Assembly (NCBI RefSeq): GCF_003334315.1
Contig: NZ_QOWR01000001.1
Direction: 5' to 3' (one strand)
Length of the DNA: 64,000 bases
DNA from: Escherichia coli
Lineage (GTDB): Bacteria; Pseudomonadota; Gammaproteobacteria; Enterobacterales; Enterobacteriaceae
Below, one piece after another: positions 1-12,000 of this stretch. Position numbers: made by a program. How positions within the stretch are numbered: the first letter of the stretch is position 1; each line of letters begins with the position of its first letter.

Positions 1-3000
1 GCCCGCCAGGCGCTGGAACGCTTTCGCGCGCTGCTGCCGGAGGATGAGAGATGAAAACCCTGGCGACAATCGGCGATAACTGCGTCGATATCTACCCGCA
101 ACTGAATAAAGCGTTTTCTGGCGGTAATGCGGTCAATGTGGCGGTGTACTGCACTCGCTACGGCATACAGCCGGGATGCATTACCTGGGTGGGTGACGAT
201 GACTACGGCACAAAGCTGAAGCAGGATCTCGCCCGCATGGGCGTCGATATCAGCCATGTCCATACGAAACACGGCGTTACCGCACAAACTCAGGTGGAAC
301 TGCACGACAATGATCGCGTTTTTGGCGACTACACCGAAGGCGTGATGGCCGACTTTGCCCTGAGTGAAGAGGATTACGCCTGGCTGGCGCAGTATGACAT
401 TGTGCACGCGGCAATCTGGGGACATGCGGAAGACGCATTCCCACAGCTGCACGCTGCGGGCAAACTTACCGCTTTCGACTTCTCCGACAAGTGGGACAGC
501 CCGCTCTGGCAGACACTGGTGCCGCATCTCGATTTTGCCTTTGCCTCCGCACCGCAAGAAGACGAAACGCTGCGTCTGAAGATGAAAGCGATTGTTGCCC
601 GTGGCGCAGGAACAGTGATTGTCACGCTGGGTGAAAACGGCAGCATTGCCTGGGATGGCGCGCAGTTCTGGCGTCAGGCTCCTGAACCGGTGACGGTTAT
701 CGACACCATGGGTGCCGGAGATTCGTTCATTGCCGGATTCCTTTGCGGCTGGTCTGCGGGGATGACATTACCGCAGGCGATAGCGCAGGGAACGGCGTGC
801 GCGGCGAAAACCATTCAGTACCACGGTGCCTGGTAGGTATAACGTTGGCGTGAGCATCTTCACGCCAACGTGCTGTTACTTGCCGGAAAACGACCCTATA
901 ATCCGAGTAATTCATTCTTTATTTCAGGGTCGATTATGTCAGCTACGGACCGCTACTCTCATCAACTCCTCTACGCTACCGTCCGCCAGCGACTGCTGGA
1001 TGATATCGCGCAGGGGGTTTACCAGGCCGGGCAACAGATCCCTACCGAAAACGAGCTTTGTACACAATATAACGTCAGCCGCATTACCATTCGCAAAGCC
1101 ATCAGCGACTTAGTGGCAGACGGCGTACTGATCCGCTGGCAGGGAAAAGGCACCTTTGTACAAAGCCAGAAAGTTGAAAACGCCCTGCTTACTGTCAGTG
1201 GTTTTACCGATTTTGGCGTCTCACAAGGCAAGGCGACGAAAGAGAAAGTGATCGAACAGGAACGGGTCAGCGCCGCGCCGTTTTGCGAAAAGCTGAACAT
1301 CCCCGGAAACAGCGAAGTGTTCCATCTCTGCCGGGTGATGTATCTCGATAAAGAGCCGCTGTTTATTGATAGTTCATGGATCCCGCTGTCGCGTTATCCT
1401 GACTTTGATGAGATTTACGTCGAAGGAAGCTCCACCTATCAGTTATTTCAGGAGCGTTTTGACACGCGAGTGGTCAGCGACAAAAAGACCATCGATATCT
1501 TTGCCGCCACCCGCCCGCAGGCAAAATGGCTGAAATGCGAACTGGGCGAACCGTTGTTTCGCATCAGCAAAATCGCCTTTGATCAGAATGACAAACCGGT
1601 GCACGTCTCCGAACTCTTCTGCCGCGCCAATCGCATCACCTTAACTATTGATAATAAAAGACATTAACCGTAGGCCGGATAAGATGCGCCAGCATCGCAT
1701 CCGGCGATGCTGGCGCGTTGAATTTTACATCCCGTACGTTCCCCTCACCCTAACCCTCTCCCCAAAGGGGCGAGGGGACCGTTCAGTACGGAATTTAGCT
1801 TGACGGTGCTATCCAGCATTAAATACTGGCAATACTCTCACGCAAAATCCGCAGCACCGTCTCTTCACCGCTGCGATTCGGGTTAATGCGAATCGCACAA
1901 TGTTCTGATTGTGGATTCGCCTGGCGAAACGTTCCGGAAAGGCGATAAAAGAGCGGCGGGATTTCATATTTCGACTCTGCACCCACCGGGTAAGGCAAGG
2001 CACCGCGCTTTTGCGCCTCTTCCAGCACTCTGGCGGCAATCGGCTGATGAAACTCGACAATCAACACCTTCGACTGCGCATTAGCAATCACCGCGCTTTT
2101 CACTTCCGGCACCGCACCACCGTTAAGCAAAGCCAGCAACCGTTCAGATACCCCTGCCTGCACCGCGTGCATCACTGGCGCAAACACCAGACCACGCAAT
2201 ACTTCCAGCGCCTGTGCGCCCTGGATCTGGCTACCGCCGGAGTAAAGCGTGGCGCGAATACGGTTGATAACATCAGCATCGCCGACCACTGCACCAACAC
2301 CCTCTGGCCCAAATAGCTTGAAGCAGGAAAATGTCGAGACATTCGCGCCGCATTCACAGCCGATTCGAGCCACCTTCATCACCGCATAGTTGTCATCGGT
2401 TAACGCTGGAACACCTGCCGCGCGCAACGTTGCCAGCACATCTGCCAGCACGTAGCTGTCCTGCGGCTGCTGGCGCGTATGCTGCACCAGCGCCGCATCC
2501 GGTTGTTGCTCGTCGACGACCTGCTTCAGTGCCGACAGGTCATTGAAATCAACAGTAATAAGCGTCAGCCCCATCTGCTCAATAATAACCCGTGTCGTCG
2601 GGTAAACAGGCGCGTCATGCACCAGAAGACGCTGCCCCGGTTTGAGCAAAGCCGCCAGCCCGGCGCGAATCGCGCCAGTCCCCGCGCCCTGCACCAGCGC
2701 CGCAGCCTGTGCGTGAAATGCATCAGCCAGCACCTGTTCCACACGCTGGGTAACGCGCGGTTGATTCAGTCCTGGCGTTAAGCCTAAATCACCGCCAGTA
2801 AGAAACTCGCTGCCGGGGAAATGGCGACAAATGCTATCCACCAGCGCAAACTGCTTTTGCTGCGCCTCAATAATCGTCAGGCTTTGCAGAGGAAACGTCT
2901 TCATAGGTGCCTTCCTTAAGCCGGAACGAACAGGCCAAGCCAGTAAAGAACATTCAGCAGAATACCGGTGATCATTACTGCCACGACCGGTGCCGCCATT

Positions 3001-9000: not shown

Positions 9001-12000
9001 GTTATCCATCTCGACCAGATAACTGCCATTGCGCCCACGGCGTTCAATCCGTATCGCTCCGCTTGATTCCAGCGTTTTCAACGCGGCCTGCGTCAGGCCA
9101 ACGGATGAACGGCATTCATTTGCCAGCTCATCTATGGTTTTCAATCGATTACCGCACTTTTCACCCAACAAATAACGGGCCAGCGTCGTGATGACGACGC
9201 CTTCTTTTTTGATAAACGTTCGACGCATAATAAATTTTCAGTAAATTGAATATTTATATCTTCAGGAATTTGAAGATAAGGCGCAACAGCGAGATGTGGA
9301 AACGGCGAGGCACTTCACATTTTTTCGGATTATTGCAAATGAGGATAAAAAAACCGGGTTTCCCCGGTTTCAGAGTGATGATAAAAGCAAAATTGCCTGA
9401 TGCGCTACGCTTATCAGGCCTACATTTCCTTGCAATATGTGCATTACTTTGTAGGCCGGATAAGGCGTTCACGCCGCATCCGGCATGAACAAAGCGCAAT
9501 TTGCCAGCAATAGTGAATTACGGCTTCGCCACAAAACCAATCGCTTCGTACACCGCTTTTAGCGTACGGGAAGCGTGCGCGCTGGCTTTTTCCGCGCCAT
9601 CTTTCATCACCTGTTGCAGGAAGGCTTCATCGTTGCGGAAACGGTGATAGCGTTCCTGCAATTCAGTCAGCATACCGGAAACGGCATCAGCCACTTCACC
9701 TTTCAGATGACCATACATCTTGCCTTCGAACTGTTTTTCCAGTTCTGGGATGCTCTGGCCCGTTACCGCTGAAAGGATATCCAACAGGTTGGAAACGCCC
9801 GCTTTGTTCTGCACATCGTAGCGAACTACCGGCGGCTCGTCGGAGTCAGTGACCGCACGTTTGATTTTCTTCACTACCGATTTCGGATCTTCCAGCAGGC
9901 CGATAACGTTATTGCGATTATCGTCAGACTTGGACATCTTCTTGGTCGGCTCCAGCAGCGACATTACGCGCGCGCCAGATTTCGGAATAAACGGCTCCGG
10001 CACCTTAAAGATCTCGCCATACAGCGCGTTGAAACGCTGGGCAATATCGCGGCTCAGTTCGAGGTGCTGTTTCTGGTCTTCACCCACCGGTACCAGATTA
10101 GTTTGATACAGCAGGATGTCCGCTGCCATCAGCACCGGATAGTCAAACAGACCAGCGTTGATGTTCTCGGCATAACGCGCAGATTTATCTTTAAACTGCG
10201 TCATGCGACTCAGTTCGCCGAAGTAGGTATAGCAGTTCAGTGCCCAGCCTAACTGTGCATGTTCCGGCACGTGGGACTGAACAAAAATGGTGCTTTTCTC
10301 AGGATCGATACCACAAGCCAGATACAAGGCCAGCGTATCCAGCGTCGCTTTACGCAGCTTCTGTGCATCCTGGCGCACGGTGATCGCGTGTTGGTCAACG
10401 ATACAGTAAATGCAATGGTAGTCATCCTGCATGTTTACCCACTGACGCAGCGCACCCATGTAGTTACCAATGGTCAATTCACCTGAGGGCTGTGCGCCAC
10501 TAAAAACGATGGGCTTAGTCATTTTTCGATTCCTGATTTTCGCTATGCGGAAGCCCTAATGCGGGCAGAAGGTCATTTATAGACTGATAAATTACATCAG
10601 GCTGGCTGAGATCGATAGCCTCGCCGTAGTTATATCCGTAGGTTAAGCCAACTGATGGGCAACCTGCCGCTTTTGCCGCCTGAATATCATTGCGTGAGTC
10701 GCCGACAAACAGCATCTGTTGTGGGGCAATTCCCATCCGCTCAGCCACCAGTAACAGCGGGTCCGGATGCGGTTTTTTGTTTTGCACATCATCACCACCA
10801 ATCACCACGCTGAAGTATTTGGCGATATCTAAGGCTTCGAGCAGCGGCGCGACGAACGGCGTCGGTTTGTTGGTGACCAGGCCTAGCGGCAGGCCTTTAG
10901 CCTGCAACGCGCCCAACGTATCGGCAACGTGCGGGAGCAAAAACGTCCCCTCTTCGGCAACCTCGCCATAGTAGCGATCGAACAGTTTACGCAGAATACG
11001 TACCTGTTCTTCTGCCGGAATGTCGTCATCAACGGGCGGTTTACCCATTGTTTTACGCTGAGTCGCACGTTCCTGACGCGCCCAGGTCAATGCGCGCTCC
11101 ATCAGAACATCTGCGCCGTTACCAATCCAGGTAATAACGCGTTCTTCACCTGCGACGGGCAACTCCAGCGCATACAGCGCCATATCTACCGCAGCAGCAA
11201 GACCAGGAGCACTGTCGACCAGCGTACCATCAAGATCAAAAGCGACGCCGCGAATATCTTCAAACTTATTCATGACTTACCTTTGCCAGTTCACTGCGCA
11301 TTTCATCAATGACTTTTTTGTAGTCTGGCTGGTCGAAGATTGCCGAACCGGCGACGAACATATCCGCGCCCGCCGCAGCGATTTCGCCAATGTTGTTCAC
11401 CTTCACGCCACCGTCCACTTCTAGTCGAATGTCAAAGCCAGACTCGTCGATACGGCGACGTACTTCGCGCAGTTTATCCAGTGTTTGAGGAATGAAAGAC
11501 TGACCGCCGAAACCAGGGTTGACGGACATCAGCAGGATCACATCCAGCTTATCCATCACGTAATCCAGATAGCTCAGAGGTGTCGCCGGGTTAAATACCA
11601 GACCCGCTTTACAGCCATTTTCTTTAATCAGTTGCAGCGTGCGGTCAACATGCTCGGAGGCTTCTGGATGAAAGGTAATGATGCTGGCACCAGCGGCAGC
11701 GAAATCAGGCACAATGCGATCGACGGGTTTCACCATCAGGTGTACGTCGATAGGGGCGGTAATGCCATAGTTACGCAAGGATTTCAGCACCATTGGCCCA
11801 ATCGTCAGATTGGGAACATAGTGGTTATCCATGACGTCAAAATGCACGACATCAGCGCCAGCTGCCAGGGCTTTTGCGGTATCTTCACCCAGGCGGGCAA
11901 AATCAGCCGACAGAATTGAGGGGGCAATCAAATACTGTTTCATCCGCTTCTCCTTGAGAATTATTTTTTCGCGGGTGAAACGACTCCTGGTTTGTACAAA

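Follow-up and report, generated by a model that had tools for sequence, protein, structure and literature searches.

A possible PTS-linked catabolic operon of Escherichia coli, yhfZ-yhfS, and its unclassified uptake module

Introduction

Gene clusters for amino-sugar acids that are linked to the phosphotransferase system (PTS) include dgaABCDEF of Salmonella, for D-glucosaminate, and the EF_0829-EF_0839 type of Enterococcus and Aeromonas (TIGR03577-TIGR03582). The biochemistry of Lmo2620, Bh0225 and MS53_0025, phospho-sugar lactonases that belong to the phosphotriesterase family, has reportedly been described in the literature of the Raushel laboratory. Here, we compare these and other known systems with yhfZ-yhfY-yhfX-yhfW-php-yhfU-yhfT-yhfS, a cluster of eight intact open reading frames (ORFs) at positions 1819-9228 of a 64,000-nucleotide stretch of Escherichia coli DNA (NCBI RefSeq assembly GCF_003334315.1, contig NZ_QOWR01000001.1), referred to below as the window. 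All eight genes lie on the minus strand.

To our knowledge, Php has been without a substrate since its structure was reported in 1998, and the 2013 structures of cluster products are said to come from a function-discovery consortium. The PDB entries 4J8L, 4KBX, 1BF6/4LEF and 2OZZ are named as uncharacterized, hypothetical or "homology protein", and a paper of January 2026 still termed yhfW uncharacterized. An earlier reading of the window, made from the sequence alone (the sequence-only reading), had stated that no substrate was established for Php or its neighbors. We likewise found no published function or substrate for the cluster genes in the literature searched, where they appear in gene lists, screens and deletion catalogues only. 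The sequence-only reading had further ranked the cluster as the locus of the window closest to an undescribed system. The cluster does lack an assigned function, but its genes are annotated and structures have been solved, so it is better called an orphan than undescribed.

Results

We place the eight genes in one regulated, PTS-linked catabolic system, whose substrate would bear an amino group and would be a phosphate ester once intracellular; we give this reading a probability of about 0.45. More broadly, the cluster is still best read as serving the catabolism of a small molecule with amino and phospho groups.

The conservation of the cluster was analyzed by scanning a DUF2620 alignment against one genome per species (100,044 species), which gave 312 places, 80 of which were fetched. 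Distant YhfT representatives and plasmid matches added approximately 20 loci, and the eight families were mapped by tblastn on 100 loci. The module recurred in Enterobacterales, Vibrionaceae, Fusobacteria, Firmicutes and metagenomic contigs. Its order was Z-Y-X-W-php-U-T-S in Enterobacteriaceae, Z-Y-X-php-U-T in most Yersinia, Z-Y-php-U-T-X-W in Vibrionaceae, Z-PRD-U-T-php-S-X-W in Kroppenstedtia, Z-PRD-U-T-amidase-php-S-X-W in Cetobacterium, and Z-PRD-X-W-U-T in the Serratia and Pantoea second locus. The functional linkage that the sequence-only reading had assumed is borne out by this recurrence of the same set across phyla in differing gene orders. Because the orders shuffle while the set is retained, the comparison offers strong evidence that the cluster genes work together.

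yhfU and yhfT were the tightest, nearly inseparable pair in the 100 loci, and one locus (L002) carried them alone with no enzyme genes nearby. Thus, yhfU appears to be an obligate partner of yhfT, and the two genes form the core module. yhfZ was present in 81 of the 100 loci, and yhfS, the least conserved member, in 42. php and yhfX-yhfW are separable enzyme modules. Enterovibrio carried a Z-PRD-php-U-T locus (L054/L058/L060) and a separate U-T-X-W locus (L059/L077/L081), and the split modules in some Vibrionaceae suggest two related substrates or a divided pathway. Photobacterium lipolyticum (L061/L062), like Enterovibrio, had two U-T modules, one with yhfZ-PRD-php and the other with yhfX-yhfW. 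A PRD-U-T-PTE-S-X cluster was also found at 15151-21236 of a 485-kb plasmid of Bacillus thuringiensis (NZ_CP126475.1; L097, identical to L007). It was followed by three paralogues of approximately 390-400 amino acids with ATP-grasp Pfam matches, some of them faint, and by an MFS transporter, a context that may connect the cluster of this lineage with a small peptide-like natural product.

YhfT (2916-4220) is a polytopic inner-membrane protein of family PF10797 and a presumed permease. It had no NCBIfam match and no convincing structural relative in the PDB or AFDB. Two eukaryotic AFDB50 entries matched E. coli YhfT, A0A077ZJH0 (Trichuris trichiura "Gasdermin-D") at 100% and A0A0A2WJZ4 (Beauveria bassiana) at 86%; these are almost certainly bacterial contamination of eukaryotic assemblies.

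YhfU (4232-4585; DUF2620) had been described in the sequence-only reading as a small protein. Its length of 117 amino acids agrees with this description; however, the protein is no bystander, as it has an RpiB/LacAB-type fold in addition to its pairing with the transporter. The best structural matches of YhfU were RpiB enzymes, and Cys and Thr lie in a Gly-rich loop of this fold (consensus DYYxGAC(N/S/Y/Q)(T/S)G(A/G)G(A/G)A). Cys52 was invariant and Thr/Ser54 conserved in alignments that included homologues at 35-47% identity; we take this Cys-x-Thr/Ser to match the catalytic Cys-x-Thr of RpiB/LacB in position and spacing. The matches of YhfU to RpiB profiles were not significant (Pfam LacAB_rpiB, E 0.16; NCBIfam PRK09273, 17.6 bits against a cutoff of 137). 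In RpiB enzymes, the C-terminal helix binds phosphate through Arg/His, and an N-terminal Asp-His also plays a role. YhfU ends at residue 117, as against 148-158 residues in the matched RpiB chains, and is thus approximately 30-40 residues shorter at the C-terminus; the Asp-His is not conserved in YhfU, which has a G-L-Q-R-E loop with Gly8 alone invariant. YhfU did not resemble an EIIB of a known family with a phosphorylatable Cys/His in a P-loop.

Genes of the PTS were found next to several of the clusters. In L091, a Firmicute-type genome with a spore small acid-soluble protein (SASP) gene nearby, Z-PRD-U-T-PTE-X-W was followed on the same strand by genes for HPr and Enzyme I. The metagenomic cluster L006 carried an HPr gene, an Enzyme I homologue adjoined the cluster in L008, likewise metagenomic, and a Lac/Cel-family Enzyme II (EII) gene, encoding EIIC, followed yhfW in L005. 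Lac/Cel-family EIIC, usually together with EIIB and EIIA, flanked the cluster in 10 Vibrionaceae loci, and glucose-family EIIBC or EIIA genes lay near the cluster in Thermoanaerobacter and Breznakia (L098 and L099). None of the loci examined had a kinase gene within its yhf-like set; a PfkB-type kinase gene was located further out in L098. Since a phosphomutase is usual in the cluster, the hydrolase has phospho-lactonase relatives and a kinase is missing, PTS-type uptake would be the simplest source of the phosphate. A PTS connection would thus explain the missing kinase, and the U-T pair, a membrane protein with a small Cys-containing Rossmann-like protein, would be the obvious candidate for such uptake.

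The flanks of the Vibrionaceae loci L057, L061-L064, L080 and L082-L085 (for example, L082 at 14311-19712) contained, beside the Lac/Cel PTS genes for IIB, IIC and IIA, two further proteins. One is conserved, has 296 amino acids and matched no NCBIfam model; the other is secreted, has approximately 700-770 amino acids and ends in what looks like a chitin-binding module.

The family descriptions that the sequence-only reading had given for the products agreed with our profile searches and PDB sequence searches. Php (4596-5474) is a binuclear-metal hydrolase of the phosphotriesterase (PTE) family in the amidohydrolase superfamily. Its sequence is identical to that of PDB 1BF6/4LEF, it scored 655 bits with NCBIfam PRK09875 (phosphotriesterase-related; cutoff 486), and precomputed domain tables assign it Pfam PTE (PF02126). 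The binuclear metal ligands of the PTE-family TIM barrel are retained. The HEHLH motif noted earlier was confirmed within YTLAHEHLHID, and the further motifs were IIAEIG, in which Glu replaces the carbamylated Lys, STHTS, GHCD and SMDIT. Php fell below the cutoffs for phospho-furanose lactonase (NF045706, 102 bits against 630) and organophosphate hydrolase (OPH; NF041153, 100 bits against 500) and is equidistant from the two models. Its PDB matches were mostly lactonases and phosphotriesterases.

YhfW (5471-6697) is a phosphopentomutase-like metalloenzyme of the alkaline-phosphatase superfamily with the catalytic residues of phosphomutases. It scored 742 bits with its own NCBIfam model (PRK12383, phosphopentomutase-like) and remained below both DeoB cutoffs (PRK05362, 184 bits against 256; TIGR01696, 146 against 341). 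The N-terminal motif quoted in the sequence-only reading was found. Alignment with the Bacillus cereus phosphopentomutase 3M8W revealed equivalents of the metal-binding Asp13 (VIDSFGVG) and of the nucleophile Thr85 (GGDTFMGH), along with ADHGNDP and HTRE; the central cap domain aligned poorly.

The remaining two enzymes depend on pyridoxal phosphate (PLP). YhfX (6697-7860; PDB 4KBX) is a fold-type III, alanine-racemase-like PLP enzyme in a subfamily of its own. It matched Pfam Ala_racemase_N (6.6e-22), which forms the fold-III N-domain, and YhfX-like_C (6e-38), and the PLP Lys, Lys61, was invariant across the aligned homologues. After its own structure, the closest PDB matches were alanine racemases, at only E 5e-6 with the family profile, and YhfX did not belong to a characterized racemase equivalog (ornithine racemase Orr, 28 bits against a cutoff of 480). 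YhfS (1819-2904; PDB 4J8L) is a fold-type I PLP enzyme distantly related to Cys/Met-metabolism and class-V families, with matches to Pfam YhfS-like_C (1e-43), Aminotran_1_2 (1e-9) and Cys_Met_Meta_PP (9e-7) and with Lys196 invariant in the alignment. The next PDB match was methionine gamma-lyase (1e-10 with the profile, PLP domain only), and the distant relatives were methionine gamma-lyase, cystathionine gamma-synthase and cysteine desulfurases. YhfS lay outside the characterized Cys/Met lyase equivalogs, of which methionine gamma-lyase scored best with 41.8 bits against a cutoff of 666. Most of the cluster products form small families of their own.

YhfZ (8323-9228) is predicted to be a transcription regulator of the GntR superfamily with a C-terminal domain of ligand-binding type. 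It scored 373.6 bits with NCBIfam YhfZ_full (NF041241; cutoff 260), which makes it a member of that family, and matched Pfam HTH_41 (1e-18, an N-terminal winged helix-turn-helix) and YhfZ_C (4e-84). PDB 2OZZ is the C-terminal domain of YhfZ, and in the profile search against the PDB the helix-turn-helix region alone resembled FadR, GntR and CodY. YhfY (7944-8306) comprises 120 amino acids with a single PRD domain (Pfam PRD, E 9e-4). It matched TIGR03582, the EF_0829 PRD family, at E 1.6e-6, which is below the cutoff of that model. In an alignment of 15 sequences, H48, A52, R55 and E101 were invariant, and the second PRD histidine position was not conserved. His48 lies in the motif THxAxAxxR, the usual phosphorylatable helix of PRD domains, and is a candidate PTS phosphorylation site. 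YhfY had no CAT RNA-binding domain and no DNA-binding domain.

A perfect 10+10 palindrome, TAAATATTCA-N6-TGAATATTTA (7889-7914), is located 29-54 nt upstream of the yhfX start codon, and a near-copy sits 3-28 nt upstream of yhfZ. Directly before the yhfZ start, two adjacent palindromes with the core TTCA-N6-TGAA occupy 9231-9277 (9234-9253 and 9258-9277). A search of the 64-kb window with the degenerate palindrome WTMTTCA-N6-TGAAKAW revealed exactly three matches (7892-7911, 9234-9253 and 9258-9277) against 0.09 expected, all of them confined to the regions upstream of yhfZ and yhfX. The palindrome 29-41 nt upstream of yhfX was kept in approximately 45 Enterobacterales loci. Citrobacter, Trabulsiella, Buttiauxella, Cedecea and Yersinia had equally placed sites upstream of both yhfX and yhfZ, often in tandem before yhfZ; in Citrobacter, Trabulsiella, Buttiauxella and others, the two members of the pair were placed 4 and 28 nt before yhfZ. 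Vibrionaceae had a single site 5-20 nt upstream of yhfZ, and in a Fusobacteriales genome similar TTTTCA-N6-TGAAAA sites followed yhfZ. As YhfZ is the regulator that co-occurs with these sites, the palindromes are probably YhfZ operators.

The sequence-only reading had treated the six genes from yhfX to yhfS as one translationally coupled operon. Their tight packing was borne out by the ORF table and by the annotation in RefSeq of an E. coli record with 100% identity: php/yhfW overlap by 4 nt and yhfW/yhfX by 1 nt, and the gaps measure 11 nt (yhfS/yhfT and yhfT/yhfU), 10 nt (yhfU/php), 83 nt (yhfX/yhfY) and 16 nt (yhfY/yhfZ). The terminator search of the minus strand gave no convincing candidate inside the cluster. 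However, because the same conserved palindrome precedes both yhfZ and yhfX, the single operon probably gives way to two co-regulated transcription units, yhfZY and yhfXW-php-yhfUTS. A Shine-Dalgarno-like sequence precedes each gene except yhfZ.

Two candidates for additional control were rejected. No RNA element, riboswitch or ribonucleic antiterminator (RAT), matched Rfam at the gathering threshold in 1500-9700, and a riboswitch at the cluster was dismissed, as the riboswitch-entropy paper lists only regions far from the operon. The pair of repetitive extragenic palindromic (REP) elements between trpS and yhfZ has been listed as a bacterial interspersed mosaic element (BIME) for yhfZ (PMC2965389). 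These two REP elements lie in the trpS-yhfZ interval (9350-9500) together with the trpS intrinsic terminator (9350-9371, minus strand; a 9-bp stem followed by a T run), which bounds the promoter region of yhfZ on its upstream side. A BIME "attenuator" before yhfZ was rejected, since the REP elements and the terminator precede the promoter region and are outside any leader. Separately, an operator-like near-palindrome, AAATCCTCAATTTATTGAAAATTT, was observed approximately 175 nt inside php in Vibrionaceae (for example, L075 at 9270-9293); it encodes NPQFIEN and probably reflects coding constraint rather than an operator.

Many E. coli chromosomes were 100% identical across an 8-kb query from the cluster, and at least 80% of this query was present in 5060 of 5426 complete E. 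coli genomes (approximately 93%). The G+C content of the genes (0.48-0.57, against a window average of 0.53) is host-like. The protein database also contained fused models 98-100% identical to E. coli (YhfT+DUF2620, Php+YhfT and YhfS+YhfT; P0002, P0005, P0012, P0109 and P0122), which are most likely frameshift or assembly artefacts and not natural fusions.

Genes in and around the clusters of other bacteria gave hints to the substrate. In Vibrio comitans, nagB (glucosamine-6-phosphate deaminase, 411 bits) separates yhfW from yhfU, and genes for a sulfatase and its maturase adjoin the cluster. The cluster of Thermoanaerobacter siderophilus is bordered on one side by PTS EIIA/EIIBC, MupG and a SIS-domain (MurQ-type) gene, and on the other by genes for a GH3 hydrolase, an acetyltransferase and an amidohydrolase, a putative NagZ/NagA-type group; within the cluster are an amidase-like gene and a PHP-domain protein like nucleoside-bisphosphate or ribose-cyclic-phosphate phosphatases. 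Amidase-like genes occurred in four clusters, and one YhfT was fused to an amidase domain. Two enterobacterial genera had the periplasmic acid phosphatase PhoC and/or the 5'-nucleotidase e(P4) after yhfT, and CUT1-type (sugar-type) ABC transporter genes flanked several Gram-positive-type clusters. From these neighbors, combined with the pentose-phosphate-mutase-like enzyme, the RpiB-fold protein and the two PLP enzymes, we infer an amino-bearing sugar, sugar-acid or ribosyl substrate, most likely of the amino-sugar, amino-sugar-acid or ribosyl-amine type and derived from cell walls, chitin or nucleotides.

Degradation of acyl-homoserine lactone or homoserine lactone, by a lactonase, an amidase and a PLP enzyme of Cys/Met type, was also considered and set aside because the metal center of Php is Glu-bridged and YhfS and the amidase are the least conserved members; it would also leave YhfW, YhfU and the PTS link unexplained. 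Lactonases of this kind use a carbamyl-Lys.

On the yhfS side, the window has the frl operon, whose frlR converges on yhfS. The sequence-only reading had recorded this adjacency, which is correct for this strain and carries no functional meaning, as yhfS adjoins cysG elsewhere. Among the loci fetched, frlR/frlD orthologues flanked the cluster in two Escherichia loci only (L001 and L013), and yhfS directly abutted cysG-nirCDB in approximately 26 other Enterobacteriaceae loci (Citrobacter, Buttiauxella, Cedecea and others). In E. coli SCPM-O-B-8794 (L011, 11682-18510), frlABCDR was absent, and yhfS was followed by cysG-nirC-nirD-nirB. The frl operon thus looks like an insertion beside the cluster, seen in Escherichia only among the loci examined and uninformative on function, and a functional link to frl was rejected. 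The convergent frlR-yhfS gap (1668-1818) contains a G-rich repeat, CCCCTCGCCCCTTTGGGGAGAGGGTTAGGGTGAGGGG, and after it a palindrome of REP type, GCCGGATGCGATGCTGGCGCATCTTATCCGGCCTAC; a clear terminator of yhfS on the minus strand was not detected. We presume that the repeat CCCCTCGCCCCTTTGGGGAGAGGGTTAGGGTGAGGGG is BoxC-like.

Discussion

The proposed system would work as follows. YhfZ would bind the TTCA-N6-TGAA palindromes and repress yhfZY and yhfXW-php-yhfUTS until its C-terminal domain binds an inducer, and YhfY, a PRD protein with one histidine, would report the phosphorylation state of the PTS to the YhfZ switch. YhfT with the cytoplasmic YhfU would import the substrate, in our preferred view through PTS-type group translocation with Cys52 as phospho-carrier or catalytic residue; such translocation would account for a phosphomutase and a phospho-lactonase relative without a kinase. 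Inside the cell, Php may hydrolyze an ester or lactone bond, possibly a phosphoester, YhfW may shift the phosphate from one hydroxyl to another on a moiety resembling a pentose or hexose, and YhfX, together with YhfS where present, may carry out PLP chemistry at the amino carbon (epimerization/racemization or ammonia elimination). The products would feed central or amino-sugar metabolism. A further step, that YhfT, whose fold lacks a solved relative, and the RpiB-fold YhfU constitute an unrecognized PTS-type permease family with YhfU Cys52 as phospho-carrier, sensed by YhfY as a minimal PRD protein in partnership with the separate DNA-binding YhfZ and with the EF_0829/EF_0830-type clusters as a sister branch, is possible, though less likely than not.

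Several observations weigh against this scheme. No component matched a recognized PTS EIIA, EIIB or EIIC family in the Pfam and NCBIfam profile searches. HPr/EI genes were found in just 3 of approximately 20 non-gammaproteobacterial loci and in no E. coli, Yersinia or Serratia cluster. The occurrence of php and yhfX-yhfW apart in some genomes (Z-PRD-php-U-T, U-T-X-W and Z-PRD-X-W-U-T) means that the enzymes need not form one linear pathway. The flanking genes point to several different compound classes, PTE-family enzymes also hydrolyze non-phosphorylated esters and lactones, and four crystal structures have yielded no published function.

The lack of EII matches suits the same catabolic operon without group translocation, in which YhfT would be an ion-coupled secondary transporter or an organophosphate importer and YhfU an RpiB-like aldose-ketose isomerase; the PTS would then be a regulatory input via the PRD protein, or a separate conventional EII in some species. 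YhfU is structurally closest to RpiB and keeps the Cys-x-Thr dyad of RpiB/LacB proton transfer, the conventional Lac/Cel EIIB/EIIC/EIIA beside the Vibrionaceae clusters and L005 could be the real PTS partner, and both the CUT1-type ABC genes at several Gram-positive-type loci and the periplasmic phosphatases next to yhfT in two enterobacterial genera fit such an arrangement. However, the yhf-like set has a phosphomutase yet no kinase at any locus, YhfU is approximately 30 residues shorter than RpiB enzymes (117 against 148-158 amino acids), L091 has HPr and EI genes dedicated to the cluster, and the near-invariant U-T adjacency, including the enzyme-free pair of L002, suggests a transport complex, physical or functional, and not a free enzyme. 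We regard this alternative as a serious though less probable competitor of the PTS-type uptake proposed above.

Both of these readings assume a nutrient. Php and its partners might instead destroy a toxic lactone, ester or antimetabolite imported by YhfT, such as an antibiotic resembling an amino acid or a nucleoside. PTE enzymes are a classic case of promiscuous hydrolysis of xenobiotic esters and lactones, and the PDB matches of Php are mostly lactonases and phosphotriesterases; yhfW and yhfZ are named in antibiotic or peptide survival lists of over-expression or knock-out screens, and the B. thuringiensis plasmid copy adjoins ATP-grasp ligases and an MFS exporter. Detoxification or metabolite repair is nevertheless improbable, as nutrient catabolism typically has its own importer, a regulator that responds to the substrate and a PRD/PTS link, the location is core chromosomal with host-like G+C, and the screen matches are weak and unspecific. 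Least credible is the idea that unrelated functions came together by chance or that the cluster is decaying and has no current role in E. coli. No phenotype or inducer is known, and some E. coli and Citrobacter records (L020 and L041) have truncated or fused gene models, but the co-occurrence of the same families across several phyla in several gene orders largely refutes this idea, and the eight ORFs are intact with conserved catalytic residues, at least 80% of the region is found in 5060 of 5426 E. coli genomes, and the operator-like sites are conserved.

We therefore retain the catabolic system with PTS-type uptake and rate it as a catabolic operon that is linked to the PTS and whose uptake module is unclassified. 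New are the modular structure seen across phyla, the dismissal of a link to frl, the predicted operator with its two transcription units, the RpiB fold of YhfU together with the tie of this protein to YhfT, and the PTS connection. The operon is among the better-conserved function-less blocks of E. coli K-12. The predicted YhfZ operator offers a reporter and a route to derepress the operon; the predicted PTS dependence can be tested at YhfU Cys52 and YhfY His48, a concrete route toward the substrate; and the candidates are narrowed to amino-sugar, cell-wall or ribosyl-type compounds. Should YhfT and YhfU prove to be a new PTS permease, the list of PTS families in E. coli, now considered complete, would gain a member; otherwise, a new catabolic pathway relevant to the gut would still be assigned.

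Comparison with known systems

In its overall design, the cluster resembles the dga and EF_0829-type systems. Like these, it combines a PRD protein, a small Gly-rich Cys-containing protein and unusual membrane proteins with PLP enzymes, which in the yhf cluster too would act on a phosphorylated amino compound, and no kinase. The EF_0830 family (TIGR03577) was the top match for 3 of 6 distant DUF2620 proteins, at sub-threshold E values of 0.011-0.22 and with two matches covering most of the protein, so that a homology of DUF2620 and EF_0830 is a lead and not a finding. In contrast to those systems, YhfT and the enzymes (PTE hydrolase, phosphomutase and fold-III PLP enzyme) come from other families, and the yhf cluster has no SelA-like lyase, KDPG-type aldolase or mannose-family EII. 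The adjoining frlABCDR operon likewise degrades a sugar-amino acid conjugate and has a GntR-type regulator, but it shares no gene family with the yhf cluster.

Individual products also have described relatives. Php has the fold and binuclear center of phospho-furanose lactonases, with residues 25-289 aligned at E 2.6e-29, and aligns at 1e-33 with PDB 3PNZ; with the phospho-sugar lactonases it also shares a sugar- and PTS-flavored gene context. However, Php is no equivalog, is as similar to OPH and archaeal lactonases, and is not known to act on such lactones. YhfW shares with DeoB the alkaline-phosphatase-type core, the metal ligands, the Thr nucleophile and the NCBI name "phosphopentomutase", whereas its context, with no phosphorylase present, is not that of nucleoside catabolism. 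YhfU differs from RpiB/LacAB proteins in its genetic tie to a membrane protein, for which RpiB has no counterpart. With the PRD regulators (the antiterminators BglG/LicT/GlcT and the activators MtlR/LevR), YhfY shares the conserved phosphorylatable-His helix, and its distant relatives match GlcT weakly; unlike them, it is a lone PRD with one conserved His, in a region with no RAT-like RNA, and it is presumably YhfZ, a separate protein, that binds DNA.

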